This document shows, in pieces, positions 3,364 through 28,583 of a DNA stretch of 32,000 bases. The translations under genes and the position numbers were made by a program. Below the pieces are notes generated by a model, which saw only the letters and a list, made by a program, of their open reading frames with translations, did no database searches and was not told the DNA's origin. The DNA comes from an uncultured bacterium (lineage in GTDB: Bacteria > Margulisbacteria > WOR-1 > CAVSGV01). The stretch covers positions 450,001 to 482,000 of the forward strand of contig OY969425.1 in the NCBI GenBank assembly GCA_963699255.1, read 5' to 3'. How positions within the stretch are numbered: position 1 is the stretch's first letter; each line of letters opens with the position of its first letter.

Positions 3364-4497
3364 GTGTCAGCAAGTATGATCGAAAGGTTTCAAAGCCCTA
3401 AAACAGCTTTCAAAAAAACATTGAAAAGCGTACGAATGGAATTCAAGGAAACGGCGCAGGCGACAAAATATGTGCTGACAAAAACATTCTACCCTAACTC
3501 AATATTGCCTGAAATAAAACAGCCGAGCCTAAGAACTGCGATAAATGAATTGGCCCGTCAACTTTCATCTAATATTTCCACGGGTGAAAAGATCCTGTTT
3601 TTTGGGGGAAGGGTCTTCAGGGAAAATGGCGAAATTATCGCTAGCGATCCGCTATTAAAGATCGGCAAGGATATGGGCGGCATGACGGTCAGGACTCCGC
3701 TTACGACAGAACGGGGAATGCGAACATTTTTAAAGGATATCTATCTGAAACCCGAAAGATGGGGGATCAGGATATCTGACGAATTCAATGAAGAAGCTAG
3801 ATCAGAGATACATTCTCAAATAATGTTGATGAACGCCATCTTGGATATTGAACCAGACAATAGCATGGCGTTATCAGTTGTTCCCAACGATCACAAGTAT
3901 CATTCTTTGGGCATTATATCGCTAAACATTTTCTGTAGCGTTTATTTTTTATATGCTTATTTGAAAGGGGGGGCTCACGCATCTCTTTTTAAGCATCTCT
4001 CACTAATAAACTTCGCATCTGGTCTGCTTATGTTATGCGCACATATTCTAGCTTCAAGTAAAGGGGTCGGCACATATCACAAAAATCAAATTAAATGTAA
4101 TTTTTCACAAGAAGCTGCCGATTCCAAAGTCCCTACACATGAATACGTTCACTTCTTAAAGGATATAGGTATATTAAAAAACGAGATAACTGCCAGTTCA
4201 TATGAATCTCTTATGCAGGTGAGAACTTATGGAAAAGTATTTGGAAAAACCGAGGCGTATGAAAAAGGATTATTAATGGACGCTAGAACGCTCCTTGCGG
4301 AAAAATTGCATTTCAAGGTTGAAAAAGAAAAAACATACAAGATCGGCACAAGACTGGCCGGGTTGGCTGTGCAATTATCAACAAAGCTTAACGATCCTAA
4401 AGCCAAGTGGGATTTTTTGAACATTGTCTCTTGTTCCGATAAGGATGAACTTTTCCCCAATCTCTTTAATAGCAAGTTCAAACAATTTTTCGAGTAA
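3364..4497 (+). CDS. hypothetical membrane protein (ORFan; two central TM helices)
   Basis: Long open frame. AAGGAG (3349-3354) lies 9 nt upstream of GTG 3364; the alternative start is ATG 3376. Central hydrophobic segments are LGIISLNIFCSVYFLYAYL and LINFASGLLMLCAHILASS. I recognise no family motif. Confidence 0.55.
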   Translation: MSASMIERFQSPKTAFKKTLKSVRMEFKETAQATKYVLTKTFYPNSILPEIKQPSLRTAINELARQLSSNISTGEKILFFGGRVFRENGEIIASDPLLKIGKDMGGMTVRTPLTTERGMRTFLKDIYLKPERWGIRISDEFNEEARSEIHSQIMLMNAILDIEPDNSMALSVVPNDHKYHSLGIISLNIFCSVYFLYAYLKGGAHASLFKHLSLINFASGLLMLCAHILASSKGVGTYHKNQIKCNFSQEAADSKVPTHEYVHFLKDIGILKNEITASSYESLMQVRTYGKVFGKTEAYEKGLLMDARTLLAEKLHFKVEKEKTYKIGTRLAGLAVQLSTKLNDPKAKWDFLNIVSCSDKDELFPNLFNSKFKQFFE

Positions 4498-4511
4498 ATA
4501 TTTAAATTTTT

Positions 4512-4546
4512 TCTCGTCTCACGTCTCGCACCTCACATCTCATTAT
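4512..4546 (+). repeat. 5 x 7-nt degenerate tandem array TCNCRTC (reverse complement GAGAYGN)
   Basis: Units: TCTCGTC TCACGTC TCGCACC TCACATC TCATTAT. It starts 15 nt after the ORFan stop and abuts the hisS -10 box. Confidence 0.75.
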
Positions 4547-4554
4547 GCTATAAT
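4546..4554 (+). promoter_or_regulatory. candidate extended -10 (TGcTATAAT) of hisS; leaderless geometry
   Basis: TG at 4546-4547 and TATAAT at 4549-4554, then 8 nt to ATG 4563. There is no Shine-Dalgarno sequence and no room for a leader. Confidence 0.45.
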
Positions 4555-4562
4555 CCCCGCGT

Positions 4563-5813
4563 ATGAAATACACAAGACAAAGAGGCACCCGTGATATCCT
4601 GCCGGGCGAAATAAAGACCTGGCAGTTCCTGGAAGAAAAGGTCCGGGCTGTTTTTGAGAACTACAATTACGCGGAAATAAGGACCCCCATATTCGAGCAG
4701 ACGGAAGTATTCACCCGCAGCATCGGCGAGGATACCGATATCGTCGGGAAAGAAATGTACACCTTCACCGACAAAGGCGAGCGTTCCATCACTCTCAGGC
4801 CGGAAGAAACAGCCCCTGTCGTAAGGGCCGCAATAGAGAATAATCTGCTGGGCAAGAACGATGTCGTAAAACTTTATTATTTGGGACCGATGTTCAGGTA
4901 TGAGAGGCCGCAAGCGGGAAGATTCAGGCAGTTCCATCAGGCCGGCGTTGAAGTTTTCGGATCTTCGGATCCACTTATAGATGTTGAAGTGATAGAACTG
5001 GGTCTCAGGTATTTCATGGAGATCGGCTTAAAAGAGCTTGAGGTCAATGTTAACAGCGTAGGATGCAATACCTGCAGGCCGAAATACAAAGAAGAACTGA
5101 TCAAATATTTCAAGGGAAGCTCCGCTGACATGTGCGATACATGCCGCGGCCGCCTGGACAGGAACCCTTTAAGGGTGCTTGATTGCAAAGATGCGAAGTG
5201 CCAGAAGCTGATAGATCATGCCCCTTCATCGACCGATTTCCTGTGTGAAGAATGCGGGACGCATTTTGACAAAGTTATTTATAACCTGGACCGGTTCAAG
5301 ATCCCGTATAAGCACAACAAACGCCTTGTAAGAGGGCTGGATTACTACACAAAGACCACATTTGAGATCATTTCAGGGTCGCTTGGGGCCCAGAACGCCG
5401 TCTGCGGAGGCGGCAGATACGATACTCTTGTCCAGGAACTTGGCGGCAAGGAAACGCCGGCTATAGGGTTTGCCATCGGCCTTGACAGGCTTGTTCTTGC
5501 GCTGGAAGAACAGAAGATCAACGTTTCCAAAGGCCTCAGGCTGCAGGCTTATGTCGTCACATTGGGAGATGCCGCCAGGCAAAAGGGTTTTGAAGTCTTA
5601 AGGAACCTCAGGAACATGGGGATAAGGTCTGATATGGACTATCAAAGCAGGAGTCTGAACTCACAATTAAGAACAGCTGATACACTAAAGGCGCAATATG
5701 CCATAATAATAGGGGATGATGAGCTTAAAAACGAGATCGCGCTGATACGATCTATGGACGATAAAACGCAGGAAACGGCTAAATTTGACGATATATTAAG
5801 GAGATTTAAATGA
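4563..5813 (+). CDS. hisS: histidine--tRNA ligase
   Basis: 416 aa. N-terminus is [16 protein letters not shown]. Class II motifs include [16 protein letters not shown] and [10 protein letters not shown]. The anticodon-binding C-terminus is present. Confidence 0.95.
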
Positions 5814-7606: not shown

Positions 7607-8628
7607 AGCTTGTTGATCTCGCGGATAAGACCGGTAAATTTTCCATAACTATTCCTGTCAAATTTCAGGCTGAGCCTGAAAAGGTCCAGTTTATCATCGG
7701 TCTTTATTTCTTCTTTTACCGGTTTGCAGCATTCGATCTTCCCTGACAGCAGTATGTCCTTGTACTTCTTGTTGAGCTTTTCGATCTGATGCGCGGAAAG
7801 TTCCTTGTTCAATCTTATGATAGTGGTGTCCCCGACATATCTGAGAGAGTTATAGACCTTATAGAAATCCGTGATCTCATTTACAGCGTCGCGGACGGTA
7901 TTGACGACCCTGAATAAATTTAGGTCATCCTTGTACAGGAGGTTCTTCTTCATCATCGCGTCCTTGACGAATCTAAGCCAGCTCTTCCAGTATGAGCCGA
8001 ACAGGGTGTCAACAAAAACAAGAGGGCGGGGAGATGTCTTTCCCGTCTGCAGAAGGGTCAGCACTTCAAAAGCTTCATCGTGTGTGCCGAAACCGCCTGG
8101 AAAAAGTACCGTCGCATCCGATTCCTTGATGAAAACCAGTTTTCTGTTGAAGAAATATTTAAGTGTAACAAGCTTCTCGCCCCTTATGTATGGATTAGGT
8201 ACCTGCTCGGTCGGGAGCTTGATGTTTACGGCAAAACTCTTGCCCGGCCTTGCTCCTTTGTTCCCGGCTTCCATGATGCCGCCGCCGCCGCCGGTTATTA
8301 CCATCCATCCCATTTCAGAGACCTGTTTCGCGAAACTCTCCGCCATTTTATATTCAGAGGACTTGGCGCTTATTTTGTGTGACCCGAAGATGACGACCTT
8401 TCGGATGCTGCGGTAAGGGGAGAAGACCTTGAACGCATATCTCAGCTCTTTCAGGGTCGAATTAAGGATCTTGATGTCCCCGACATCCCTCAGGTCGCCG
8501 GAAAGCTTGCAGATCGTAGTGAACATCTGGCGGTAGAACTCTGTGGTTTCGCTGTTCCCGTATTTTCTTGCCAATTCATCGATCACTTTGTCGTCATTAA
8601 TATTGCCCAGACAGTACTTCTTTTCCAT
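7603..8628 (-). CDS. LOG-family (TIGR00730-like) protein with N- and C-terminal extensions; possible nucleotide 5'-monophosphate nucleosidase (PpnN-like)
   Basis: Motifs [24 protein letters not shown] and [12 protein letters not shown] (LOG PGGxGTxxE). The track start at 8646 is a TTG. I prefer ATG 8628 (MEKKYCLGN...) because TTGACC-17nt-TATGAT sits 6 nt upstream of it. Confidence 0.78.
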
Positions 8629-8634
8629 GGCGGT

Positions 8635-8663
8635 ATCATATATCAAAAAGAAATAAAGGTCAA
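8635..8663 (-). promoter_or_regulatory. sigma70-like promoter of the LOG-family gene; predicts a leaderless mRNA
   Basis: Read on the minus strand: TTGACC (8663-8658), a 17-nt spacer, TATGAT (8640-8635), then 6 nt to ATG 8628. Confidence 0.55.
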
Positions 8664-8679
8664 AACAGGAAAAACACTT

Positions 8680-8714
8680 GAGATGAGAGACGGGAGATGT
8701 GAGATGAGAAGTGA
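8680..8714 (+). repeat. 5 x 7-nt degenerate tandem array GAGAYGN (inverted partner of 4512-4546)
   Basis: Units: GAGATGA GAGACGG GAGATGT GAGATGA GAAGTGA. Positions 8679-8709 match the reverse complement of 4512-4542 at 25/31, ungapped. Confidence 0.75.
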
Positions 8715-9829: not shown

Positions 9830-9953
9830 ACGATCCATATCATATCCTGCTATTTAGCTCTCCAAAGCTCAAATCCGGGCCTGTTCAAGTCTCCATAACC
9901 GTGAAATTTACATGCTTTTTTGACGATATATTAATTAGAGGGGATTTATAACA

Positions 9954-12287
9954 GTGAGCACCGCGGAACCGCTAATAACTAACAGAGCGTTGATAAGACA
10001 AGCCCTTTCCCTTAACAGGACGGAATACAAAAAATTCAAAACACAGCATATAAATGATCCTGTGATGAACAAGGAACACCAAATATGGAACATTAGCTCG
10101 AACGCCGCCAAATTCCTTTATGATGCCTTTGGTAACCATAAAGCAGTTGTAGCCGCATTGCTGATGCCCGTTGAAAGAAATAAGATCAAGGAAATCGACC
10201 AATCCCTGTATTCCATCATAACAGCATATGACAAGATGATGGATTTCACCGTCCCGACCAAACCTGACGCGTCTATTATAAATAATCACTACAAAATGCT
10301 TATTGCTGATCCGTTACTGAGAGGAAAGTTTTCCGGAGAAGACCTTTTAAGCGCCCATTTTTTGATGTTCGGCATGATGCAAAGCACCCTAAAAAAAGGG
10401 ATACCGGTGATCGAGCTCTTTTACAGGGATCCGCTCATACTGTCGCAAATGGCGCTTTCCACGGCAAAGCTTTTGAACCGGTTTCAAAAAGATCTCGAAG
10501 CTTGCCAGTTGAAAGACGCGGCACTTAACATAATCAACCCCGACTTATACAAATTTGCGGAAGAACATGGTTACAATGATATACCGGAGTTCGTTTTGCT
10601 GAAAAAAAAGGATGAATTGCTGGCCGAACTAAGTAATAAATGCACGGAAGTATTTCAATATCAGGAGGGTTTCAGTTTCGAGGTTAAAGGAAGGCTGAAA
10701 GCGCGCCAGAGCATAGTGGACAAAATGGAAAAGAAAAAAGGTAAAAAGGTCCTTGATATTCTGGGCCTCAAAGTGATCGTTCATTGCCCGCATGGTCCAA
10801 GCCAGATCAGGGCACTTGAGGAAGCGCTAAAGGCGGCTAAAATAGATGAACAAAAAAGTGAAATAAAAAGACTCTATAAGGAAAGCTCTGATCAGCTTTA
10901 TTATCTAAGATCAGCAATATACTCTTACGCTCAAAAGAATGGTTGGATAATAAATAAAAAAGAATCTGATAATTATGTGGCGAAACACAAGGAAAACGGA
11001 TATCAGGCATTGCACGATAATTATCAGATCAAAATAGGGAATAATGCCATCACGGTCGAGATCCAGCTTCTCACGGATCAGATGTACCACTATAACAACA
11101 CGATAGCAAGCCACGATGAATACAAGGGAGGAGAGGGGCTAAAAGGGGATTATGCGCCAAATGAGACAAATAAGATGTTTGACGAGATCCAAAACGACCT
11201 CTCACCTAATGTTTACGCGTTCGTCAAAGAAGAAAATGACATATCCGGGCCATATGAGTTATGCCCGAAAGAAAATTCCTATGGGATGCCGCTTGACTTG
11301 CTTTCCCACATTAATTCTTACGACTCGCAGCGTTTTTATATATATCAGCAGGGCAGGGAATCACTCATAAAAAGTGATGACAGGGTCAGGAATGGATCTG
11401 TTATAGGGGGTAAGGGAAAAGCCAATCCAGGAATGGGAAGGATCGAAAAACTTTACGGTACGGAGACCGGAAAGAACGCGGCTCGATTTAATTTGGACAG
11501 CAAAGCCTTGAAGGAAAGTGAAATCCTGGCCATGGAAAGGAACGGAAAAACTTTCCTTGACAATTTGATCAGCAATGGGAGCAACGGCCGGGAAAACGGA
11601 ACAAATGGCGGATCAAACGTTGTTTTCCTTGAAAATCATTTTCTTGACGAATTAAAATATAATGATATTGTCACCGCTTATTTTTATATTGGCAAAAATG
11701 AGACTTTTCGCGAGAAACTAAAAAATGAAAAAAACAAATATCTGCTAAATTATACGTTTGATGCTGAAAAGGGGAAGATCACTTTTAGCGGGCATAACGA
11801 CTCGCTCTTTGTAAGGGCCATCATGAGGTATTTAGCCGACACGAACCGCAGCATGAGATCCGTGCGCCAGTCCCCTGACGGGGATAAGATGATCTTCACC
11901 GCCGAATTGGACAACTTCTCAAAAGAGGACCTTATGAAATTGACGGAGTATCTGAAAAAAACAGGCAACGTCAGAAAGCTATATAATAACCTGCCCGCAA
12001 AAACCGTCATTGATAAGAAGCTGAAGATCACGTTCAAAAGCGATGAACCGGGAATGATCTACAAGGTATATTTGTTATTATGCAAGAATAGTTGTTATAT
12101 ATCCTCGTTCGAATCCGGCGAAACGGCGCCGGGAACCAGCGCCTCGGCTGATTTTATGGTAAAGTTCCCCGGTAAATTCAACGATGAAAAATACAAACAG
12201 CTGCTAAATGAAATAAAGGACCTCCCTGACGCGTATGTTAAGAGGGCCAGATTAGACGTGACAAAGGGCGTTACTTTCGAAGTTTGA
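9954..12287 (+). CDS. highly divergent long RelA/SpoT homologue (degenerate HD region, RelA_SpoT synthetase-like, TGS-like and ACT-like C-terminus)
   Basis: GTG start with GAGGGG 9 nt upstream. Synthetase-like block: KGRLKARQSIVDKMEKK...VLDILGLKVIV...DNYVAKHKENGYQALH...TVEIQLLTDQMYHYNNTIASHDEYKG. HD-like remnant: AVVAALLMPVERN (canonical AALLHDvvED). TGS-like: VYAFVKEENDISGPYELCPKENSYGMPLDLLSHI...DDRVRNGSVI. ACT-like: LKITFKSDEPGMIYKVYLLL. The 777-aa length fits a long RSH. Confidence 0.7.
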   Translation: MSTAEPLITNRALIRQALSLNRTEYKKFKTQHINDPVMNKEHQIWNISSNAAKFLYDAFGNHKAVVAALLMPVERNKIKEIDQSLYSIITAYDKMMDFTVPTKPDASIINNHYKMLIADPLLRGKFSGEDLLSAHFLMFGMMQSTLKKGIPVIELFYRDPLILSQMALSTAKLLNRFQKDLEACQLKDAALNIINPDLYKFAEEHGYNDIPEFVLLKKKDELLAELSNKCTEVFQYQEGFSFEVKGRLKARQSIVDKMEKKKGKKVLDILGLKVIVHCPHGPSQIRALEEALKAAKIDEQKSEIKRLYKESSDQLYYLRSAIYSYAQKNGWIINKKESDNYVAKHKENGYQALHDNYQIKIGNNAITVEIQLLTDQMYHYNNTIASHDEYKGGEGLKGDYAPNETNKMFDEIQNDLSPNVYAFVKEENDISGPYELCPKENSYGMPLDLLSHINSYDSQRFYIYQQGRESLIKSDDRVRNGSVIGGKGKANPGMGRIEKLYGTETGKNAARFNLDSKALKESEILAMERNGKTFLDNLISNGSNGRENGTNGGSNVVFLENHFLDELKYNDIVTAYFYIGKNETFREKLKNEKNKYLLNYTFDAEKGKITFSGHNDSLFVRAIMRYLADTNRSMRSVRQSPDGDKMIFTAELDNFSKEDLMKLTEYLKKTGNVRKLYNNLPAKTVIDKKLKITFKSDEPGMIYKVYLLLCKNSCYISSFESGETAPGTSASADFMVKFPGKFNDEKYKQLLNEIKDLPDAYVKRARLDVTKGVTFEV

Positions 12288-12304
12288 AGCGATTATTTGC
12301 TTTC

Positions 12305-13615
<1,311 letters not shown>

Positions 13616-13617
<2 letters not shown>

Positions 13618-13745
13618 GAAATTGGGGAATTAGGAAATTTGGAACAAAGTTTAGGAATACAGGAAAACGGGAAATTGGTTACCCATTTTCCATATCCCCT
13701 TTTCCCTAAACTCATTTCCTCTATTCCTGTCCTTCCATATTTCCT
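13616..13745. repeat. 130-nt imperfect palindrome with a purine-rich left arm and a pyrimidine-rich right arm (GGAAA-type ~8-nt units)
   Basis: Left arm 13616-13678 (47/63 purines), loop TTAC 13679-13682, right arm 13683-13745 (52/63 pyrimidines). The outer AGGAAAT/ATTTCCT, the loop-proximal GGAAAxTGG/CCAxTTTCC, and GTTTAGG/CCTAAAC are complementary. The interior pairs only with bulges. Confidence 0.7.
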
Positions 13746-13772
13746 TAGTAATAATTTTGATCGGATAAAAAT

Positions 13773-14441: not shown

Positions 14442-14487
14442 TCATATCGGTATGAACAGTATTAGCAGAACCCATGAAGATATAAAG

Positions 14488-14513
14488 GAGCCGAGGCGTT
14501 TAGCCTCAGGCTC
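14488..14513 (+). terminator. GC-rich hairpin downstream of queC
   Basis: GAGCCGAGGC (14488-14497), loop GTTTA, GCCTCaGGCTC (14503-14513), with one bulge. No clear U-tract follows. Confidence 0.4.
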
Positions 14514-14527
14514 ATAGGAAATTAAAT

Positions 14528-15346: not shown

Positions 15347-15360
15347 AAAAAATAGCAATT

Positions 15361-15386
15361 CACAATGACACAATGAACAACAATGT
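15361..15386 (+). repeat. left inverted-repeat arm flanking the Avd-like gene (CACAATGA CACAATGA ACAACAATGT)
   Basis: It matches the reverse complement of 15833-15858 at 22/25 with one 1-nt gap. Confidence 0.7.
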
Positions 15387-15434
15387 TGCCTCGCTTACGC
15401 TCGGCGGTTAATATATAATAATGCACAATCAACT

Positions 15435-15800
15435 ATGAAATTCGACATTAGAGACAGATCTAAAAAGTTCGCTATAAGAGTAATTAAACTTATTAATAAG
15501 TTCTCAAAGGAACTGGCTTTACAGGAGATCGCGCATCAGTTGGTCAGATCTGCCTGCTCGATAGGCGCTAATCTTGAAGAGGCAGATGCTGCTTCTTCGC
15601 GAAAAGATTTCTTCCATAAAGTATCGATTTCTTATAAAGAAGCGAAAGAAACAAGATATTGGCTTGACTTGATCCTTGAAGCAGAACTGCTTAAGAACCA
15701 ATCAAATATAAAAGAGGCTGAAGCTTTGCGCAACGAAGCTATTGAATTAAGCAGGATCTTATTTACGATTTTTGAAAAGAAGGATAAAAATAATTGTTAA
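15435..15800 (+). CDS. four-helix-bundle protein (23S rRNA intervening-sequence protein / Avd-like family)
   Basis: 121 aa. Family signature LVRSACSIGANLEEA...SRKDFFHKVSISYKEAKETRYWLDLI. TATAAT (15414-15419) lies upstream. Confidence 0.85.
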   Translation: MKFDIRDRSKKFAIRVIKLINKFSKELALQEIAHQLVRSACSIGANLEEADAASSRKDFFHKVSISYKEAKETRYWLDLILEAELLKNQSNIKEAEALRNEAIELSRILFTIFEKKDKNNC

Positions 15801-15819
15801 AGAGTAATAATTTTGATGA

Positions 15820-15843
15820 TGTCGCGGAGCGACACTTTGTTGT
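15820..15843 (+). terminator. small hairpin with a T-rich tail downstream of the Avd-like gene
   Basis: TGTCGC gga GCGACA (15820-15834), followed by CTTTGTTGTT. Confidence 0.3.
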
Positions 15844-15858
15844 TAATTGTTAATTGTG
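15833..15858 (+). repeat. right inverted-repeat arm flanking the Avd-like gene
   Basis: CACTTTGTTGTTAATTGTTAATTGTG is the reverse complement of CACAATTAACAATTAACAACAAAGTG. It overlaps a possible ribF promoter: TTGTTA 15840-15845, 17 nt, TATTAA 15863-15868. Confidence 0.7.
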
Positions 15859-15872
15859 AAATTATTAATTAA

Positions 15873-16802
15873 ATGAAGATAATCAAATTTAATGAACATA
15901 TAAAAACCAGATCGATCGTTTTAGCCCTTGGCAACTTTGACGGCGTCCACGCAGGCCATCAAAAACTGATCCTTGAGGCGCTAAGATTTGCCAGAAGGAA
16001 AAAGCTTCCGTGTTTCGCGATGACTTTCGATCCGCATCCCCAGGAAGTGGTCGATCCGGGACGGGGGCTTTGTCTGCTGACCACTTTATCCGAAAGGATC
16101 GGCCTGATGCGAGGTCTGGGCGTTGACGGGGTCATGGTCAAGGAATTCAGCGAGAAGATATCAAAGCTGCCGCCTGAAAAGTTCATATATGATTTCCTGG
16201 TGAAACACCTTAAGGCCAGGAAAGTATTCATAGGCTATGATTTTGCGTTCGGCCACAAGAGGTCCGGGACCATATCCACCCTGAAGAAGCTCGGGGATAA
16301 ATACGGTTTTGCGGTCAGCGCTGTCAAGCCCGTGATGACGCACGGCCATCTCGTAAAAAGTTCCACAATACGCGACATGCTTTCCCGCGGCGACTTCAGC
16401 AAGGCGGTCAAGCTTCTGGGACATCCTTACACGATGACCGGCCTGGTCGTAAGGGGCAGGGGGAGGGGAAGGGCACTGGGGTTCCCCACGGCCAACCTTA
16501 GCATCGCACCGGACAAGCTGGTGCCCGCCCAGGGAGTATATGTGGGGCATGTCGGCAGACGCATGTGCCTTGTTAATATCGGTTCGCGGCCCACTTTCGC
16601 CGAGGAGAAGTTCGCGATAGAGGTCCACATCCCCGGCTTTCACGGCGACCTGAGGGGAAAAGTGGTCCAGGTGGACTTGTTCAAGAGACTTAGAGATGAG
16701 ATACATTTCGCGGATGTTGAAAAGCTGAAATATCAGATCAGAAAAGATATTGAAAAAGCAAAATTATTAATCCCCCGCTCGCTTCACTCGCACCCCCTTT
16801 AA
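15873..16802 (+). CDS. ribF: bifunctional riboflavin kinase / FMN adenylyltransferase
   Basis: 309 aa with LGNFDGVHAGHQ, GRGRGRALGFPTANL and EVHIPGFHGDLRGK. The last ~11 codons (LIPRSLHSHPL) are encoded by a C-rich hairpin element and look like a non-homologous tail. Confidence 0.92.
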   Translation: MKIIKFNEHIKTRSIVLALGNFDGVHAGHQKLILEALRFARRKKLPCFAMTFDPHPQEVVDPGRGLCLLTTLSERIGLMRGLGVDGVMVKEFSEKISKLPPEKFIYDFLVKHLKARKVFIGYDFAFGHKRSGTISTLKKLGDKYGFAVSAVKPVMTHGHLVKSSTIRDMLSRGDFSKAVKLLGHPYTMTGLVVRGRGRGRALGFPTANLSIAPDKLVPAQGVYVGHVGRRMCLVNIGSRPTFAEEKFAIEVHIPGFHGDLRGKVVQVDLFKRLRDEIHFADVEKLKYQIRKDIEKAKLLIPRSLHSHPL

Positions 16803-16822
16803 TAAAGGGGGAAGGGGGGATT
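16769..16822. other. two-tier C-rich/G-rich hairpin between convergent ribF and the histidine kinase
   Basis: The inner stem CCCCCTTTA (16793-16801) / TAAAGGGGG (16803-16811) contains the ribF stop codon. The outer stem is AATCCCCC (16769-16776) / GGGGGATT (16815-16822). There is no adjacent U-tract on either strand. Confidence 0.55.
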
Positions 16823-16832
16823 CACGCGTTCT

Positions 16833-18989: not shown

Positions 18990-18990
18990 T

Positions 18991-20221
18991 TTATTGTTTT
19001 ACATCCCCTTTATTAATCAAGCCAAAATGCCTTGTTTTTGCGTATCGAATCAATTTTAAGAAATTGCCTGTATTTATTTCTGGGCAAGATGGAAGATAGG
19101 GTTTTTCGATATTTGACATATTTTTATTCGCAAAAGAAATATCGTCCATTACAAGATAAGGTGTATATATTTTTCCAACGCTCTTATAATATATTTTTTC
19201 AAGTTTGTTTTGGTCGGTTGGTTCCTTTTCTGTGAAACTGTATCCTGAAATATTCAACTCGTTTAATATTAATGATAGATATTTTGTGTGAGCGAATGTG
19301 CTTTTGTTAGCTATATGATAACTCTCTCCTGGTGCATTGTTAAAACATACTGAACAGATGAATTTGGCCGCATAATCGGCTGGCACGATATTTAGCCCCG
19401 TTTTTAGATTGCAGGTCACTCTTATATTTAGCTCAACATGGGTTTTATATAATGCAGCAAAATCATTAGTTTTATTCATTTTTTCTTTTAAGAAGAATGT
19501 TGCCCAGCCATAGAACAGATCATGGAATTTGTTAATGCTTCCTATTGGCTTTTCAATTAATCGCCCGCAAATCCCAACCGGCCTAAAGATTCTATATTTA
19601 ACTTTTTTAAATGAAAGAAATCTTCGGAAATTAATCTCCGCAAGAAGTTTGGATTCCTCGTAATAATTTCTGAAATTGCCTTTAGTAATAATATCGTCCG
19701 GATAGATTTCTTTTAAAGTTCCCCCAAATGAATATGCAGATCCAGTATAGATCGCCTCATTTGTATCTAATTTATCGATTAATTTAAGAATTCGATTGGT
19801 GCCCTCAATGTTAATATTCTCAAGCTTCTTTTTTGTTTGATTATCCAGCCGGAAGTCTGACAAAGAAGCGAAGTGAAAGAAATAATCTATCTTTTTAGAC
19901 TTTAATATATTCATACTATCTTGAGAAATATCCAGGATCTTCTTTAGCCAAGTCAAAAGAGATTGGAACAATGCATTTATCAATTTTGCTAATAATATCC
20001 TTTGAACTTTTTGGGTTTATTCCAATGTATTCATAGCCCTCATCAGAAAGTATGTTTTTGATTCGCTCGTAAAGTGACACTGTTTTATGAGACCTGCCAA
20101 GAATGAGAATCTGAATATTGCCCAGATTTTTTATGTTTTCCTTGAGGATTTCGAAAACTAAATTTCTCCCGAGTAATCCAGTTGCTCCGGTTATAGCGAT
20201 ACGCAAAATAATTACCCCCAA
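18991..20221 (-). pseudogene. thioester-reductase-like SDR (NAD_binding_4-type) split by a 1-nt frameshift
   Basis: Two overlapping ORFs in different frames. ORF 19916-20221 encodes (M)RIAITGATGLLGRNL...ISFDLAKED. ORF 18991-19983 encodes ...ISQDSMNILKSKKIDYFFHFASLSDF...NIEGTNRIL...YYEESK (YxxxK). Removing one base near 19936-19937 gives a continuous FDLAKEDLDISQDSMNIL. The stop at 18991 lies 1 nt from the HK start at 18989. Confidence 0.7.
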
Positions 20222-20227
20222 TTTTTG

Positions 20228-20237
20228 TTCGTTGATT
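20228..20237 (-). repeat. further copy of the AATCAACGAA core
   Basis: TTCGTTGATT on the plus strand is AATCAACGAA on the minus strand. It lies immediately upstream of the SDR pseudogene's 5' end. Confidence 0.5.
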
Positions 20238-20378
20238 TATTATCCCATACCCTTAAATCACTGTCAATTCTTCCTGTGCCTGTCGAAAAAATCAACTCCA
20301 GTGGACAAGGTTTGTTCTTAATATGCTTTAGTGATAAAATCACAGCCAAATGTTAATCAAAGCAGGTATTATAAATTT

Positions 20379-23222
20379 ATGAATTATTATTCAATTGCTC
20401 AACTGATCAATTTTTTTGCGCTTATGGGGTTAGGATTATTTGTCTTCTTTTATGACCACAGAAACCGGATAAATCAAACATACGCTTTAGTTAACTTTAG
20501 CTTGGCATTTTGGGGGTTATTTTATGTGTTTTGGCTCACTTCCTCTGATTATGATTCTGCTTTCATGTATCTTAAATGGCTAATGATATTTGCCGCGATA
20601 ATTCCTGTAACATTACTGCATTTTGTATTTAACTTTCTAAATATTAAAAAGTACAGAGATATAATCTTACCTGTTACATATTGCCTGGCTTTCATTTGTA
20701 TTGTTTTGGTTTGGCAAAACCTCTTTTTCGACGCAATGAAGCCAAAAATGGCTTTTAGGTTTTGGCCGGACGCCGGAAGATATTTTGTTTATTATCTTAT
20801 ATATTTTTATTATGGTGTTTTGACTTCTTTCTTTCTTTTGATGCGTGCATACTTCAAATCGAGCGGCCAAGAAAGAAATAAGCTCACATATTTTATTTTC
20901 GGCGCTCTTCTTGCTACAATAGGGGGATCTTTAAGTTTTCCATTATGGTATGATATAAATATTCCACCTTTCTTAAATTTATTTGTTTCGGTTTATGCAA
21001 TTGTTGTAGCTTATACAATACTCAAGCATCATCTCATGGGTATCGAAGTTATTCTTCGAAAAGGCCTGATATATTCAGTTATAACAGCGGTTTTCGTTTC
21101 GCTTTATTTCATATTGCTCCGATATTCTAATTTGCTGATTGTCGGAGGCCTTGTTCAGCCGCCATTAAAGATCGTGTATATTATTGCGGCTTTTAGTGCA
21201 ATGATCCTGCATTTCGTCTTAGGGATATTCGTTTTTTTAAACAACCCGCGCAAGCCTCTTAATAGGGTATTTTCACTATTAAGTTTATTTATTTTCGTTT
21301 GGATCGTTGGATGCTGTATTCAAACGGTAATAAAAGATACTTTTATAGCACTTATAACAGAAAAGATCGTTAGCAAGTTTTATGTGTTTACTCCAGCATT
21401 ATTTCTGCACACTTTTTATGAAATATTGCATATAAAACAAAAACGTCTTATATTGTTCAGCTATCTATTTGCTGGTCTTATATGTGTTTTATCATGCACC
21501 AAATTGTTTTTAATGGGTGTTTCATATAATTTTGGAGCAAGATATTTAACCGCCCCAGGGCCATTGTTTTTCCTTTTTCCGCTGTCAATCATAATTAATT
21601 CCTATTTTTCTTTGTCAGGGCTTCTGACAGTTAGGCGGCAAGCATCAGGGTATTATAAGATACAGTTGGATTATTTGTTATTAGCCGGCAGTTTAATTAT
21701 TATTGCCGTGTTTTTCTCCAATTTGCTCATTTACAATGTTGTTTTTACTCCATTTGATGAAATGCTGAATATTGCTTATGGTGTGACGATCGGCTACGCG
21801 ATCCTTCGACACCGATTAATGGACATTACCATAGTCATCCGCAAAGGATTAATATATTCCGTCCTTATCGGCTTTTTTACCGGACTTTATATCCTTATGC
21901 TCTACATTTTCAGCAGCCTTCTTGGCGGGATCGGAGCCAGAACATCGATCTATTTTTCGGCATTACTAATTATCTTTTTCGCGATCACCTTCCAGCCCCT
22001 CCGCGACAAAATACAGGAATTTATCGATAAGGTGTTTTTTCGAGGCAAATACGATTACCAGAAAACGCTTAAAGAATTGAGCCTTGCCGCCAGATCAATT
22101 GCTGGAATTGATGAATTGTTCGATAAAATTTTAACCGCCATCGTAAGCATCATTAAGCTAAAGAATGCCTCCATCTATATGGAGGACAAAAGGGCAGGGC
22201 AGTACATAGTCAGGAAATCGATCGGGATCGATATAAGAAGATCTGGTCTATCCCAAAACGACGATATCATCAGGCAGCTCATATCAAGGAAAGAAGCTAT
22301 CATGTATGACGAAACATCAAAAACTTCCGGGAATGTCGGAAGTTTCATGAGAGACACAGGCGCGGCAATAGTATTTCCGATGATAGCGAAAGATGAACTC
22401 GTCGGCTTCCTCTGCCTCGGAGAAAAGCTTTCCGGAGAGGTCTACAGCAACGAAGATATCGATCTGCTTACAACGCTCTGCAACCAGATGGGCGTGTCTA
22501 TCGAAAACGCTATGCTTTACGAAGATGCCATGGAAGCCCAGAAGCACTTATATCAGGCGGATAAACTTGCGACCGTCGGCGCGCTGGCTGCAGGGCTGGC
22601 CCATGAGATAAAAAACCCCATCGCGGCCATCAAAGGCTTTACGCAGGTCATTGATAGGGCGGTCAAGGAAAACGACCAGGAAACACTGAATGATTTCAAG
22701 GAAGTTGTCCCAAGACAGCTTGACCGTATCAATGAAATTGTTGAAAAACTCCTAACGCTAAGCAAGCCGCAGAGCCTTGTGAAGACCAAGGTTGACATCA
22801 ATAAGCTGCTTACTGACATTATTCGACTTGTTGAGAAGCAGGCGTTGAAACAAAAAGTGCAAATCATAAAAACCTTTGGTGATATCCCGCAGACTCTGGC
22901 CGATCCTCAGCAGCTTACCCAGGCATTTCTTAATCTGATACTGAATGCGATACAAGCTATGCCGGATGGCGGAGCGTTGGAGATCAGAACGAAATCCGTC
23001 GGCACAGATAGTATCCTTGTCGAGTTCATCGATAACGGAGTCGGCATCTCAAAGGACAAGCTGTCGCGTATTTTTGACCCCTTCTTTACCACAAAATCGG
23101 GAGGATCAGGTTTGGGACTCTCCGTAACCCGTAAGATAATACTTGACCATCATGGAAAGATCGAGGTTGAGTCCGAAGCAGGGAAATGGACGAAGTTTAC
23201 CGTAATGGTACCGGTTAGATAA
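20379..23222 (+). CDS. sensor histidine kinase with two tandem 7TM sensor modules, GAF-like, HisKA, HATPase_c
   Basis: H-box AAGLAHEIKNPIAAI, plus FLNLILNAIQAM, DNGVGI and GGSGLGLSV. The module signature appears twice: GLFVFFYDHRNRINQTY from 20433 and GIFVFLNNPRKPLNRVF from 21222. I prefer ATG 20379 over the track's GTG 20331 because TATTAT sits 6 nt upstream of it. Confidence 0.88.
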   Translation: MNYYSIAQLINFFALMGLGLFVFFYDHRNRINQTYALVNFSLAFWGLFYVFWLTSSDYDSAFMYLKWLMIFAAIIPVTLLHFVFNFLNIKKYRDIILPVTYCLAFICIVLVWQNLFFDAMKPKMAFRFWPDAGRYFVYYLIYFYYGVLTSFFLLMRAYFKSSGQERNKLTYFIFGALLATIGGSLSFPLWYDINIPPFLNLFVSVYAIVVAYTILKHHLMGIEVILRKGLIYSVITAVFVSLYFILLRYSNLLIVGGLVQPPLKIVYIIAAFSAMILHFVLGIFVFLNNPRKPLNRVFSLLSLFIFVWIVGCCIQTVIKDTFIALITEKIVSKFYVFTPALFLHTFYEILHIKQKRLILFSYLFAGLICVLSCTKLFLMGVSYNFGARYLTAPGPLFFLFPLSIIINSYFSLSGLLTVRRQASGYYKIQLDYLLLAGSLIIIAVFFSNLLIYNVVFTPFDEMLNIAYGVTIGYAILRHRLMDITIVIRKGLIYSVLIGFFTGLYILMLYIFSSLLGGIGARTSIYFSALLIIFFAITFQPLRDKIQEFIDKVFFRGKYDYQKTLKELSLAARSIAGIDELFDKILTAIVSIIKLKNASIYMEDKRAGQYIVRKSIGIDIRRSGLSQNDDIIRQLISRKEAIMYDETSKTSGNVGSFMRDTGAAIVFPMIAKDELVGFLCLGEKLSGEVYSNEDIDLLTTLCNQMGVSIENAMLYEDAMEAQKHLYQADKLATVGALAAGLAHEIKNPIAAIKGFTQVIDRAVKENDQETLNDFKEVVPRQLDRINEIVEKLLTLSKPQSLVKTKVDINKLLTDIIRLVEKQALKQKVQIIKTFGDIPQTLADPQQLTQAFLNLILNAIQAMPDGGALEIRTKSVGTDSILVEFIDNGVGISKDKLSRIFDPFFTTKSGGSGLGLSVTRKIILDHHGKIEVESEAGKWTKFTVMVPVR

Positions 23223-23225
23223 GCT

Positions 23226-23294
23226 ATCAACGGATATGGAAAACGGACCAACGGATAGGAACGCTATCAACGAATTAAGAACGAATCAACGAAT
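23226..23294 (+). repeat. array of seven direct RAACGRA units at about 10-nt phasing
   Basis: AACG starts at 23229, 23242, 23250, 23260, 23269, 23280 and 23288 (spacings 13, 8, 10, 9, 11, 8). ATCAACGAAT occurs at 23266-23275 and 23285-23294. The array begins 4 nt after the HK2 stop. Confidence 0.75.
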
Positions 23295-23319
23295 GGGGAT
23301 ACAAATATAAATATATGGT

Positions 23320-23354
23320 TGTCGACTTTATCGACACATACTGTCGATTTCGAC
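23320..23354. promoter_or_regulatory. two adjacent operator-like palindromes, TGTCGA-N5-TCGACA and TGTCGA-N2-TCGAC
   Basis: Site 1: TGTCGA 23320-23325 and TCGACA 23331-23336. Site 2: TGTCGA 23342-23347 and TCGAC 23350-23354. The centres are about 20-21 bp apart, and the pair lies about 170-200 nt upstream of the 23526 gene. Confidence 0.45.
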
Positions 23355-23525
23355 GACACTTTCACAAAAATGCAAATGCCAAGATAATGTTTTTGTTGTG
23401 ATAGAAGCAAATAATTATTAATTGAATTGGTAAGAATATTGCTATTTAGATATATATGTATTATTTGTTGTTTGTGGAGGGACTAATGCTTTTAAATCTG
23501 CATTTTAAGGATTGGAGAATATAAC

Positions 23526-26720: not shown

Positions 26721-26724
26721 TAGC

Positions 26725-27633
26725 ATGATTCAAAAAATGATTATTTATTCTTTGGTTTTTATGTTTACAACTATCCCAGTTCTGGCTGCAAGCGATTCCA
26801 CCGGAACTACCGCAGCAAACTATTTAAAAATATCCGGTGGTGTGCGTGCGGCAGGGATGGGGGATGCCTTTATTGCGGTATCTGACGATTCAAGTGCGAT
26901 ATATTGGAACCCGGCCGGTCTAGTGCAGAATGATGCAATTGAGCTTTGTTCAGCATATACCAAATGGTTTCAGGACATTTCTCTTACGAATATCAGCGCA
27001 TCAAAGCACCTGTGGGATAGTGATTATGCCGGCATGTCGCTCACGCTATTAAATATGGGCGAAATCGAAGAAACAACACTTGCGAACCCTGATGGGTCTG
27101 GCAGAAGTTTCTCACCTTCGGATATGATAGCTGTTACTTCTTACGCAAGAAAGTTATCACCTGTCTTCTCGATCGGCATAAATGTTAAGTACATCAGCGA
27201 TACGATAGACAAATCAAATGTTACTGGATACGCATTTGATCTGGGAACGCTATATTCCACTCCTTTTAAAGACCTGAATATGGGGCTGTCAATAAGGAAT
27301 ATTGGCGGTTTATCCGGAGTTGATTCTCCTTTGCCAGTCAATATTGGTTTAGGGTTGGCATATAAATTACTTAATAGAAAGAACCTCTTGCTGGCTTGCG
27401 ATGTAAATTTCCCGAATGACGATCAAATGTCCATTCACATTGGATGCGAATACAATATTGTCGAATGGTTCGCGTTGAGGATCGGATGCAATACAAGAAA
27501 GGACGATGGTTCAGGCGGAAATCTAGGCGTCGGATTGGGCCTCATTTGGAATGGATTGGCTGTTGATTATGCCTATGCTCCTTATGGGGATCTTGGGGAA
27601 GCACATAGAGTATCGTTTGGAATTAGAATGTAA
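26725..27633 (+). CDS. PorV/PorQ-like outer-membrane beta-barrel protein
   Basis: The start is set at ATG 26725 (MIQKMIIYSLVFMFTTIPVLAAS, a signal peptide), not the track's 26581, which overlaps the upstream gene. The N-terminal signature is TTAANYLKISGGVRAAGMGDAFIAVSDDSSAIYWNPAGL. Alternating beta-strand-like segments run to the C-terminus. Confidence 0.68.
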   Translation: MIQKMIIYSLVFMFTTIPVLAASDSTGTTAANYLKISGGVRAAGMGDAFIAVSDDSSAIYWNPAGLVQNDAIELCSAYTKWFQDISLTNISASKHLWDSDYAGMSLTLLNMGEIEETTLANPDGSGRSFSPSDMIAVTSYARKLSPVFSIGINVKYISDTIDKSNVTGYAFDLGTLYSTPFKDLNMGLSIRNIGGLSGVDSPLPVNIGLGLAYKLLNRKNLLLACDVNFPNDDQMSIHIGCEYNIVEWFALRIGCNTRKDDGSGGNLGVGLGLIWNGLAVDYAYAPYGDLGEAHRVSFGIRM

Positions 27634-27724
27634 ATATCTAAACAAGGATAAAACGATGATAAAAGTAATGTCATACAAAATTAGCATGGTTTTTGAGGTA
27701 AAACTATTAGAAAGGATGTAAACT

Positions 27725-28480
27725 ATGTTTATTAAAAAAGCTTTAGTTTTATTAATTGTTATACTTATTCCTTCTGTCGTGTATGCCGCAGACATTTCCG
27801 CTGAGGGGCTGATAGCTAAATTGAAGGATACACGAGCTCTCATTCTTGACCTCCAGGCGGATACCAAAACAACAATTACTTCAAACATCTCAATTCCCGG
27901 AGCGCCGTCAAAAGGGCCACAGACGGTAACACAAATTGGCCATATCTGGCAGAAGGGCAGTGACAAGTCGAAGGTTGAGATAACAAGTCCAATGAAGCAG
28001 ATCACTATCACCAAGGGTTCGATCATGACGATGATCAGCCCGGATACGGGACAAAAAGTGACGCAAGATTTGAGCAAGGGGTTAGGGGCTGGGGGACAGG
28101 GGATGGATGCTACCAAGGCGTTGGATTATTTTAATTTGACGGTAAGCACTAACGAGGCTGGAACTGGGGAAGCAAAAGTGTATGTGATATCCGGCACGCC
28201 GAAAGAGGCGAATCAATTCCTTGGCAGGATGGATTTCTTCATTGATGCCGAAAAATATATTCCGATCCGCATCGCGATGTATACGCCGCAGGGTGCTCTT
28301 ATGTCGCTTTCGGAGATGGAGTATGAACCGATAGAAGTATCAACAGGCGAGACAGTATATGTGCCAAAGAGGATCAAGTCCGTTGTAACAATGCAGATGG
28401 GATCGATAAATACGGAAATGGAGTATGAGAATATTCAGGTGAATCAGGGGATCGAGGATGACGTGTTTGAAGCGCAATAG
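27725..28480 (+). CDS. LolA-like / outer-membrane lipoprotein-sorting-like periplasmic protein
   Basis: Signal peptide MFIKKALVLLIVILIPSVVYA. The pattern LIAKLKD...LDLQAD..., FFIDAEKYIPIRIAMYTPQGAL and the terminal NQGIEDDVFE is typical of LolA_like/DUF4367 proteins. This call comes from my recall of the family pattern. Confidence 0.55.
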   Translation: MFIKKALVLLIVILIPSVVYAADISAEGLIAKLKDTRALILDLQADTKTTITSNISIPGAPSKGPQTVTQIGHIWQKGSDKSKVEITSPMKQITITKGSIMTMISPDTGQKVTQDLSKGLGAGGQGMDATKALDYFNLTVSTNEAGTGEAKVYVISGTPKEANQFLGRMDFFIDAEKYIPIRIAMYTPQGALMSLSEMEYEPIEVSTGETVYVPKRIKSVVTMQMGSINTEMEYENIQVNQGIEDDVFEAQ

Positions 28481-28481
28481 C

Positions 28482-28553
28482 AATCAACGAATGACTCAAA
28501 AAATATATGAATGGAGGTAAATCTCTTACTATTCGTTGATTCGTTTGGATTCG
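28482..28553. repeat. perfect 11-bp inverted repeat AATCAACGAAT / ATTCGTTGATT (38-nt spacer) plus extra TTCG units
   Basis: 28482-28492 pairs with 28531-28541. ATTCG recurs at 28531, 28539 and 28549. The same 11-mer occurs at 23284-23294. The element starts 2 nt after the LolA-like stop. Confidence 0.8.
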
Positions 28554-28583
28554 ATGATAGCTGTAATTGAAGGAGGAAAAAGT

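Follow-up and report, generated by a model that had tools for sequence, protein, structure and literature searches.

We examined a 32-kb stretch of DNA from an uncultured bacterium of the Margulisbacteria (contig OY969425.1, positions 450,001 to 482,000; hereafter, the window), with a focus on six intergenic elements, most of them built of short tandem repeats with inverted partners, and on a gene for a small protein of the PF05635 family, denoted IVP, that one pair of such repeats encloses. The sequence of the host genome that was read comprises the window and 5 kb of coding DNA from locus L089, and the nearest genomes, as judged by purA and Amj, are metagenome-assembled genomes of Candidatus Saganbacteria/Margulisbacteria. 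According to Pfam scans and calls of open reading frames (ORFs), the gene map of the window is compact and mostly co-directional, and includes hisS, aspS, a LOG-family gene, an FGE-sulfatase gene, a RelA/SpoT-like gene, purA, queC, amj, ribF, two genes for seven-transmembrane (7TM) histidine kinases, and an operon of beta-helix, PorV-like and LolA-like genes. Tandem arrays were called with Tandem Repeats Finder (TRF; period 5-12, score of at least 30) and assessed against a chance baseline of 200 dinucleotide shuffles. Inverted partners were sought by all-vs-all local alignment restricted to intergenic regions; a default repeat finder was dropped, its output consisting mostly of chance pairs.

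An earlier note on this DNA described six short-period arrays, each with its own unit, an inverted partner and a start at or shortly past a stop codon, and proposed that they form a lineage-specific punctuation element with conserved architecture and variable sequence. The stop codons and element starts are all located where that note placed them (Table 1). Its description of the repeats is confirmed, with a few caveats: tandem arrays of 7-8-nt units are indeed present, but 16769-16822 is a GC hairpin, 23223-23294 is irregular, and the elements at 23226 and 28482 are built on a common unit.

Table 1. Elements of the window and the gene enclosed by one of them
Feature	Position	Strand	Description	Upstream stop codon	TRF call
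E1	4512..4542	+	Pyrimidine-rich heptamer array TCNCRYC x4.4	Accessory ORF 3295-4497, stop 4495-4497	Period 7
E1p	8679..8710	+	Purine-rich array TGAGATG x4.5; inverted partner of E1		Period 7
E2	13614..13748	+	ORF-less dyad; hairpin of about 60 bp, -43.4 kcal/mol, z -3.3; purine-rich arm (GGAAATTN)n 13615-13678, pyrimidine-rich arm 13684-13745	purA TAG 13615-13617, within the first GGAAATTN unit	13615-13674, 8 nt x3.8 plus 2.8
E3 left arm of IVP cassette	15353..15385	+	(AGCAATT)(CACAATGA)(CACAATGA)(ACAACAATG); homologous to left arms of L094-L103	amj 15344-15346	15361-15380, 8 nt x2.6
E3 inner left segment	15386..15434	+	Imperfect GC hairpin (GCCTCGCTTACGCTCGGC), then promoter-like TTAATATATAAT (-10 at 15414-15419)
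IVP gene	15435..15800	+	121-aa four-helix-bundle protein, PF05635 (23S_rRNA_IVP)
E3 inner right GC hairpin	15820..15834	+	TGTCGCGGAGCGACA, then CTTTGTTGTT; terminator-like for the IVP gene
E3 right arm	15835..15872	+	CTTTGTTG(TTAATTG)n; ends 1 nt short of the ribF start codon		15840-15870, period 7, 4.3 copies
E4	16769..16822	+	GC hairpin, nested: outer stem C5...G5, inner stem CCCCCTTTAATAAAGGGGG; z -3.1	ribF 16800-16802, in the loop of CCCCCTTTAATAAAGGGGG	No tandem array
E5	23223..23294	+	A-rich, irregular array with units (N)AACGRAT; 28531-28561 is the inverted partner of its core, 23263-23294 (GCTATCAACGAATTAAGAACGAATCAACGAAT)	Second histidine kinase gene (HK2) 23220-23222	Not called
E6	28481..28561	+	Local dyad: one ATCAACGAAT unit (28481-28493), loop, right arm (ATTCGTTG)n (28531-28561); z -3.05	LolA-like gene 28478-28480	28531-28558, 8 nt x3.2

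Both the arrays and their pairing exceed the chance expectation. Arrays were called in 6 of the 15 intergenic regions of the window, whereas the shuffles gave 0.4 on average and never more than 3, and their density was 4.1 per kb in intergenic and 0.23 per kb in coding DNA; as a baseline from elsewhere, arrays occurred in 4.7% of 658 intergenic regions from 76 unrelated bacterial loci. The five highest scores of inverted local alignments among intergenic regions (42, 35, 34, 34 and 33) were all above the shuffle 95th percentiles at the respective ranks (37, 30, 27, 26 and 24), and the five pairs are exactly the partnerships named in the earlier note. The three adjacent dyads fold at z of about -3 each. 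The more distant cognate arms form duplexes of -45.9 kcal/mol (E1 with E1p, z -5.1), -22.2 kcal/mol (15355-15390 with 15832-15872, the terminal inverted repeats of the IVP cassette, z -4.4, none of 300 shuffles doing as well) and -44.3 kcal/mol (E5 with the right arm of E6, z -9.2), whereas non-cognate combinations of arms in the window reach only -3 to -14 kcal/mol. The distance between paired arms varies widely, from 5 and 37 nt through about 450 nt to 4.1 and 5.2 kb.

The concern that the arrays could stem from assembly error was settled by an assembly made independently (L081; Logan ERR10755942, possibly from the same sample), which is 99.96% identical to the window across 14 kb and carries, base for base, the four arrays or dyads that it covers (its coverage starts at 4528, inside the 4512 array); hence, these structures are not assembly artefacts. 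In accord with the observation that none of the elements ends in a canonical U-tract, terminator-like sites were no more common in the window (14 and 11) than in the shuffles (13.9 and 11.9), and scans of the window for canonical terminators and promoters revealed no enrichment over shuffles. Identification of the dyads as intrinsic terminators was rejected because no terminator-like site coincides with them, the exception being the inner hairpin of the IVP cassette (15820-15834). When each element was compared by blastn-short to all fetched loci, no further copies were detected at E<0.05.

The segment 15353-15872, between amj and ribF, is one full PF05635 cassette, in which inverted arms enclose the IVP gene together with inner GC hairpins. 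The encoded protein matches PF05635 with an E-value of 7.5e-21 and 74.8 bits (cutoff 33.8), and the Protein Data Bank entry 2rld, which has five chains, with an E-value of 3.8e-20. Counterparts of the inner right hairpin, gtcgccgaaggcgac, are present in L095 and L097.

In a separate observation on this gene, L081 lacks one C at window position 15550, a change that would shift the reading frame of IVP; the remaining five differences over the 14 kb are substitutions in aspS. The missing C is either a population polymorphism, that is, a decaying cassette gene, or an assembly error.

The association between arrays and the IVP gene extends far beyond the window. We collected 80 metagenomic loci by means of the IVP protein alone (40-69% identity), with the flanks playing no part in the selection. 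Arrays were present on 50 of the 75 upstream and 59 of the 78 downstream flanks of the IVP homologues, with a period of 7 in 95 of the 109 and of 8 in 11, and their density within 200 nt of the IVP gene was 4.21 per kb, compared with 0.255 per kb elsewhere in the same loci, a 16-fold difference. The copy number is tightly clustered (median 4.6, interquartile range 4.3-4.9), and the downstream arm begins at a median distance of 15 nt past the IVP stop codon, a distance that is no more than 10 nt in 26 of 57 loci. The repeat unit differs from locus to locus, for example, GAATTGA, AAATTGA, GGCAAAA, AATTAACA, AAATGCCT, AAATGAC, AATGCCG and ATTTCGC, and the two arms of a locus nevertheless match: in about 45% of 66 loci, the alignment of the upstream flank with the reverse complement of the downstream flank surpassed the 95th percentile of a mismatched-locus control. 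Among pairs of arrays from the same locus, 59 are inverted and 12 direct. The inverted pairs include 41 that span the IVP ORF (gaps of 300-600 nt), 9 ORF-less dyads (gaps below 300 nt) and 9 long-range pairs, which bracket pilC (L153), a 3-hydroxyacyl-CoA dehydrogenase gene (L168), and IVP together with jag and yidC (L131). The arms also show a characteristic polarity, the upstream arm being A-rich in 79% of the loci and the downstream arm T-rich in 85%; the pairs in the window follow this rule except for 4512/8679, and reversed polarity is found also in the extra arm of L153 and L168.

These regularities bear on the simplest conceivable origin of the arrays, namely neutral, microsatellite-like slippage combined with chance matches between low-complexity sequences, without any common origin. 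Heptamer simple sequence repeats (SSRs) are over-represented in many bacterial genomes (PMC4692102), and Coxiella strains vary in repeat copy number (PMC4990558), in line with such an origin. Nevertheless, the presence of cognate-specific inverted partners far beyond those in shuffles, the narrow spread of copy numbers, the strong enrichment beside a single gene family and the conserved polarity make slippage extremely improbable and refute it for the pattern as a whole, although it could still apply to the irregular stretch 23223-23262.

The twelve closest homologues (L094-L105), wherever both flanks are available, reproduce the order of features seen in the window: array, GC hairpin, TATAAT, ORF, GC hairpin, inverted array. 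On the 5' side, the upstream stop codon is followed by an (AATTAACA/AATGAACA)n array, a small GC hairpin, ttattatataat and the ORF, which starts with ATG; on the 3' side, the ORF is followed by a GC hairpin, CATGTTGTT(AATTGTTA)n and the next gene. The genomic contexts of these cassettes are unrelated, some lying directly upstream of tRNA genes, and in L094 and L095, ORF-less copies are found alongside the cassette. Arms are shared by 39-68% of the locus pairs with protein identity of at least 55% and by no more than 2% of the pairs below 55%; the arm sequence is inherited together with the IVP gene.

The same build is found in named genomes. A tblastn search of PLSDB identified 31 plasmids with an IVP homologue, mostly from Nostocales. 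In Nostoc punctiforme plasmid pNPUN02, the gene NPUN_RS35560 (annotated as 'four helix bundle protein') is flanked by (CAATTCG)4.5 and (GCGAATT)4.5, the latter directly after the stop codon, and in N. flagelliforme the IVP gene is flanked by (TAATTCG)4.5 and its inverse. Outside the cyanobacteria, an IVP gene of Chondrinema (Bacteroidota, L177), located between genes for an RND adaptor and a permease, carries TCAGTTA/TAACTGA units, and that of Chlorohelix (Chloroflexota) carries GGATTTT/AAAATCC arrays. Thus, the inverted-array build flanks PF05635 genes in metagenomes and in plasmids of Cyanobacteriota, Bacteroidota and Chloroflexota, and is not specific to the lineage of the window, as had been surmised. 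Two of the cyanobacterial cases involve cas genes: a PF05635 gene with arrays lies between cas2 and cas1 on pANACY.01 of Anabaena cylindrica (L175), and another lies upstream of cas1 on pPg_04 of Pseudanabaena (L179). Insertion of PF05635 genes within cas operons has been described previously (Zhang & Ye 2013). The reported association of this family with CRISPR may reflect promiscuous intergenic insertion, and the IVP-flanking repeats could be mistaken for CRISPR-like arrays.

Comparison with relatives shows that the elements of the window are insertions. Orthologous regions were obtained from relatives with Amj identity of 96% (L082/83), 80% (L092/93), 79% (L084-86), 76% (L087/88) and 71% (L090), the coding DNA being 67-90% identical to that of the window at the nucleotide level; for the nearest relatives, nucleotide identity is 81-88%. 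All six elements fall in alignment gaps, the orthologous junctions of L082, L083, L085, L087, L090 and L092 being free of them. The purA and queC genes overlap or abut in five relatives (L082, L085, L087, L092 and L093) and are 155 nt apart in the window; the amj-ribF gap is 25 nt in L082, 13 nt in L085 and 1 nt in L090, compared with 526 nt, including a gene, in the window; ribF and the adjacent kinase gene overlap by 8 nt in L082 and are separated by 30 nt in the window, where the C-terminus of ribF is rewritten by the hairpin; and the LolA-like gene is followed by the next gene after 12 nt in L082 and after 103 nt in the window. Gene content varies along with the elements: the IVP gene is absent from L082, L085, L090 and L092; ORF 3295-4497 and E1 are absent from L085, where the PALP gene and hisS are 42 nt apart; the FGE-sulfatase gene and E1p are absent from L082; and the beta-helix and PorV-like genes are missing from one or more relatives. 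A different stretch of low complexity occupies the E5 site in L082. Of the six relatives' loci that were scanned, five are without arrays; arrays were found in 2 of 4 spacers in L087 and in 1 of 8 in L001. Some relatives have dyads of their own at other junctions, namely AAATCCC/GGGATTT and GCTAG/CAACTGG in L087, and C5/G5 hairpins occur at other junctions in L085 and L090. The elements of the window are, accordingly, insertions of recent date and account for almost all of each spacer.

These comparisons weigh on the view that the arrays are lineage-specific, non-canonical punctuation, that is, conserved terminators, processing sites or insulators placed after stop codons. This view draws on the starts of the elements 0-15 nt past stop codons, on the stable folding of the adjacent dyads and on the lack of enrichment of canonical terminators, such that another 3'-end signal might be expected. 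It is, however, very unlikely to be correct: the elements are missing at every orthologous junction in the six relatives, most of the relatives' loci are array-free, the same architecture is found in other phyla, and the partner arrays at 8679-8710 and 15835-15872 precede start codons. Moreover, purA-queC and amj-ribF overlap or are tightly coupled in the relatives, so that a terminator there would break operons. The lack of conservation already weakens this view. Proximity to stop codons is largely a matter of geometry: ancestral spacers measured 0-40 nt, so any insert must adjoin a stop codon, and insertion into formerly tight gene junctions accounts for the element starts. The spacing to the downstream start codon (10-27 nt) is as small as that to the upstream stop because the elements fill nearly the whole spacer, and the partner at 8679-8710 lies between divergent starts. 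The alternative mentioned in the earlier note, a repeat-generating process at gene ends, comes closer to the findings.

Insertion naturally raises the possibility that the arms belong, as terminal inverted repeats, to a DNA transposon or a miniature inverted-repeat transposable element (MITE) that is mobilised in trans and has no role at the RNA level. The presence/absence polymorphism between relatives, the ORF-less derivatives beside ORF-bearing copies and the diversity of insertion contexts, including tRNA-proximal and intra-operon sites, are all compatible with transposition. Conversely, the cassettes neither contain nor adjoin a transposase gene, the flanks inspected show no obvious target-site duplications, and arms also occur singly or at long range around core genes; furthermore, the arms are wholly different between subfamilies, so that many co-evolving transposases would be needed. 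We therefore regard a conventional transposon as unlikely.

The explanation that we favour, with moderate confidence, is that the arrays are the arms of a widespread, poorly characterised small inserted element, namely PF05635 cassettes resembling the intervening sequences (IVSs) of rRNA genes, with a role as an RNA stem suggested by analogy. Each arm measures about 30 nt and contains some 4.5 heptamers (in some cases octamers) in tandem; the two arms are inverted relative to each other, with an A/purine-rich 5' arm and a T/pyrimidine-rich 3' arm. By architecture alone (period, arm length, polarity and a cognate inverted partner), we infer that the other arrays of the window, namely the ORF-less hairpins 13614-13748 and 28481-28561 and the long-range pairs 4512/8679 and 23263/28531, belong to the same class as the cassette. 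The element class envisaged in the earlier note thus survives as a conserved architecture with variable sequence (inverted arms of about 30 nt, with 7-8-nt units, at gene ends) but not as conserved punctuation of this lineage. In a read-through transcript, the two arms would pair to form an RNA stem of 25-35 bp with the cassette looped out; such a stem would correspond to the structure that is cleaved by RNase III in the IVSs of Coxiella and Leptospira 23S rRNA, and could both make the insertion tolerable within operons and set the transcript ends of the flanking genes. By this analogy, an RNA stem processed by RNase III would be the likeliest function of the arms. RNA processing, one of the roles originally suggested, is therefore a reasonable candidate function, whereas a termination-like punctuation role is not supported by the junctions in the relatives.

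Several observations count against this explanation. Only one arm pair in the window encloses an IVP gene, the units of the other pairs differ from those of the cassette, and a tblastn search for IVP remnants near the other arrays of the window returned nothing significant. The pair 4512/8679 has the polarity opposite to the cassette rule and brackets three core genes, one of which is on the opposite strand, so a single transcript containing both arms is unlikely; the RNase III stem mechanism fits this pair poorly, given that its arms enclose convergent transcription units. In cassettes of the window type, the promoter of the IVP gene is interior to the left arm, and hence the mRNA of the gene itself would lack that arm. 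Finally, in the AATTAACA subfamily, the arms are as similar within a cassette (33.6) as between cassettes (33.3), so that pairing receives no direct support from covariation beyond the conservation seen at the family level.

The conservation of arms within protein subfamilies, which exceeds the requirements of complementarity, leads to two further readings that invoke recognition by a protein. In the first, the arms are DNA sites either for a nucleoid-associated or global regulator, such as integration host factor (IHF) or HU, as proposed for Geobacter metallireducens (PMC2700814), or for the pentamer of the cassette's own IVP. In addition to the conservation, the tandem, phased units of roughly constant total length and the position of several arms just upstream of promoters (those of hisS, LOG, the beta-helix operon and IVP) would be compatible with protein binding, and PF05635 relatives form pentamers, as indicated by 2rld and by Xcc0516, the latter as cited in PMC3936711; Xcc0516 was not reached by sequence searches from the window IVP protein. 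However, there are dozens of units across the cassettes and at least 4 in the 32-kb window, too many for one host protein, and a period of 7 nt does not match the helical phase of DNA; we consider DNA sites of this kind rather unlikely, yet a serious rival to the RNA stem. In the second reading, which we offer as a tentative possibility, PF05635 proteins and the arrays that flank their genes together make up a cognate protein-repeat system, in which the pentamer would read roughly five phased heptamer cores of its own arms, in RNA or single-stranded DNA, and IVP would drive the insertion, maintenance or processing of both the cassette and the ORF-less pairs with matching units. This suggestion stems from the co-divergence of arms and protein, from the subfamily-level conservation of the arms noted above, from the clustering of copy numbers at 4.3-4.9 and from the pentameric state of the solved relatives.

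Individual elements and their surroundings add further detail. E1 consists of the units TCTCGTC, TCACGTC, TCGCACC and TCACATC followed by TCA, starts 15 nt past the stop codon of the accessory ORF and lies just upstream of the extended -10 promoter of hisS (TGcTATAAT, 4546-4554). Its partner E1p abuts the GTG start (8711) of the accessory FGE-sulfatase gene, upstream of the -35 box of the divergent LOG promoter (TTGACC-17-TATGAT at 8663-8635), and so sits between two divergent starts rather than after a stop. In the intergenic alignment, the region downstream of the FGE-sulfatase gene (9830-9953) contained nothing above background that could be a degenerate right arm. As to the promoters themselves, the -10 box is followed by the ATG after 8 nt in hisS (4546-4565) and after 6 nt in LOG (8626-8663, minus strand), an arrangement conserved for hisS in L085, L087 and L092; the mRNAs of both genes would be leaderless or nearly so.

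Just past the right arm of E2, at 13746-13760, lies an exact 15-mer, AGTAATAATTTTGAT, that recurs at 15802-15816, just past the IVP stop codon. The second copy is inside the cassette, before the inner hairpin, so that the position relative to the arms differs between the copies; the copy at purA-queC may be a remnant of an older cassette. E4 lies between the convergent ribF and histidine kinase genes and belongs to a separate family of GC-hairpin insertions; a clear relative lies between hisS and aspS in L085, and C5-6/G5-6 hairpins of similar style lie downstream of purA in L090. The final ~12 codons of ribF, together with its stop, are encoded by the E4 hairpin (…LLIPRSLHSHPL, 16763-16802); in L082, the ribF product ends in …KQSDYV, and the overlap there is with the convergent kinase gene. 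E5 lies upstream of a conserved TGTCGAC...TCGACA operator and of the promoter of the beta-helix/PorV/LolA-like operon. The repeated palindrome TGTCGACTTTATCGACA...CTGTCGATTTCGACGACA at 23318-23360 is conserved upstream of the LolA-like operon in L082 (~14085-14125), and is probably the operator for a regulator.

Other features of the region stand apart from the elements. A conserved hairpin of ~24 nt, GCCGAGGCGTTTAGCCTCAGGCTC, is located in the queC-amj spacer of the window (14486-14512) and of L082 (6760-6790), and downstream of ribF instead in L085 (11800-11828); it looks like a small REP-like (repetitive extragenic palindrome) element that occupies differing loci in related genomes. In L087, the 322-nt LOG-purA spacer contains, between two arrays, a GC-rich, structured-looking segment (7900-8010; …GGGAGTTGAACGCGGAGGCGACAGTATCGCTGATGGTCGACACCCACC…GGTGGGGCTTTTT), a candidate for a small RNA or for a leader of the riboswitch type. 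A low-GC block in the window (18345-21814; 33-36% compared with about 45-50%) extends over an epimerase-like gene and, in each of the two 7TM histidine kinase genes, over the half that encodes the sensor; its lack of nucleotide similarity to L082 points to a sensor module that is variable or has been replaced. Within the RelA/SpoT-like ORF 9954-12287, the segment 10785-10925 gave weak tblastn matches to several divergent IVP proteins (E 0.2-9); these matches may be due to chance or to a four-helix-bundle-like segment of the RelA/SpoT-like protein.

The PF05635 family is a very common 'hypothetical' one and includes Avd, the accessory protein of diversity-generating retroelements. The arrays of the window are now tied to a single architecture that flanks PF05635 genes in at least four phyla. 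If this link holds, the family gains a testable partner sequence, the presence of PF05635 genes within operons, including cas operons, is explained, and some annotated 'regulatory repeats' would appear to be footprints of a small selfish cassette. For annotation, the implication is that the window spacers are recent insertions, neither conserved regulatory punctuation nor assembly errors.

Several known systems resemble these elements in part, contrary to the supposition that no described class does; precedents come from Geobacter (PMC2700814), Xanthomonas (PMC4692102) and the IVS of Coxiella (PMC4990558). REPs and related elements (bacterial interspersed mosaic elements, REPINs and MITEs) share with the window extragenic hairpins, presence/absence among relatives, and singlets together with inverted doublets. 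However, REPs consist of one conserved palindrome of 20-40 nt per genome and depend on a RAYT transposase, whereas the window arms are tandem heptamers with differing units and no RAYT or other transposase is in view; membership in the REP/REPIN class was rejected on the grounds that non-cognate arms are unlike each other and that the window genes scanned contain no transposase-like Pfam domain. CRISPR arrays were likewise rejected, the window repeats being head-to-tail units of 7-8 nt without spacers, as opposed to 24-48-nt repeats with unique spacers. Integron attC sites were dropped, since the arms lie on both sides of the ORF instead of trailing it, and no integrase is found among the scanned genes; no GTTRRRY core was seen by eye, without a formal search for it.

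The closest parallel in overall build is the IVS of 23S rRNA genes. The Coxiella IVS contains a PF05635-type ORF and a 28-bp terminal inverted-repeat stem that is cut by RNase III, and tandem GACAGAT heptamers, the copy number of which varies among strains, precede the ORF (Warrier et al. 2016, PMC4990558). The rRNA IVSs of Leptospira and Coxiella burnetii thus share with the cassette a small PF05635 ORF bounded by stem-forming inverted repeats (about 28 bp), tandem heptamers, and a sporadic distribution with apparent horizontal acquisition (PMC4990558). The differences are that the window elements lie between protein-coding genes rather than in helix 9, 25 or 45 of 23S rRNA, that here the arms themselves are the tandem repeats, and that ORF-less and long-range versions exist; RNase III cleavage is known for the IVSs and, for elements of the window type, would follow from PMC4990558 only. 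The window contains no rRNA, tRNA or transfer-messenger RNA and has no Rfam match (0 hits at gathering thresholds), and hence the elements represent no known RNA family; with the cassette located between amj and ribF and no rRNA in the window, 15353-15872 is IVS-like in build and is not an rRNA IVS.

The paired sites of G. metallireducens come closest with respect to the arrays as such. In that genome, three classes of sites (24, 21 and 8 pairs for classes 1-3), each with 3-5 tandem hepta- or octanucleotides, have been described (Aklujkar et al. 2009, PMC2700814); paired sites lie on opposite strands at variable distance, between biosynthetic genes, and binding of IHF/HU was proposed. Tandem units of this kind (3-5 units of 7-9 nt) are present in the TRF-called arrays of the window, loosely in 23223-23294 and not in 16769-16822, and so are paired, opposite-strand intergenic sites at variable distance near gene ends. 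In both cases, the sites are intergenic, 3' of one gene and 5' of the next (moaA/mosC and proB/proA in Geobacter), several sequence classes coexist in a genome, and the Geobacter class TCTCCGTS resembles the TCTCNNC unit of the window. By contrast, Geobacter has 8-24 pairs per class per genome, whereas the window units were seen within 32 kb only, and the Geobacter sites were read as IHF/HU sites, with no PF05635 link reported.

Short tandemly repeated repetitive (STRR) heptamers of cyanobacteria were reportedly described by Mazel in 1990. Separate reports on cyanobacteria, Xanthomonas, Geobacter, Beggiatoa and the rRNA IVS of Coxiella describe heptamer arrays close to the ends of genes, and each makes another suggestion as to their function: G-quadruplexes, global regulator sites or translational control. 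The GGGAATC arrays of Xanthomonas are located on average 28 nt after ORFs and form 70-75 convergent inverted pairs (Rehm et al. 2015, PMC4692102), Nostoc contains GGGGA(C/T)T heptamer SSRs (PMC4692102), and TAACTGA arrays end a few nucleotides before start codons (MacGregor 2015, PMC4679880). Like the window arrays, these repeats are intergenic and close to the upstream ORF, in some cases overlapping its stop codon, and the TAACTGA unit is the one that flanks the Chondrinema IVP gene. Unlike the window, with several units within 32 kb, these genomes each have one dominant unit, and the repeats were interpreted as G-quadruplexes or translational-regulator sites, with no gene association reported. 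We found no paper that combines the PF05635 family with heptamer or tandem repeats and, within the literature searched, the link between this family and the arrays is new, the component arrays having been described piecemeal before. If the tentative cognate protein-repeat system proposed above is real, it would unify the STRRs, the TAACTGA and GGGAATC arrays, the Geobacter 'paired sites' and the rRNA IVSs as a single kind of mobile element.

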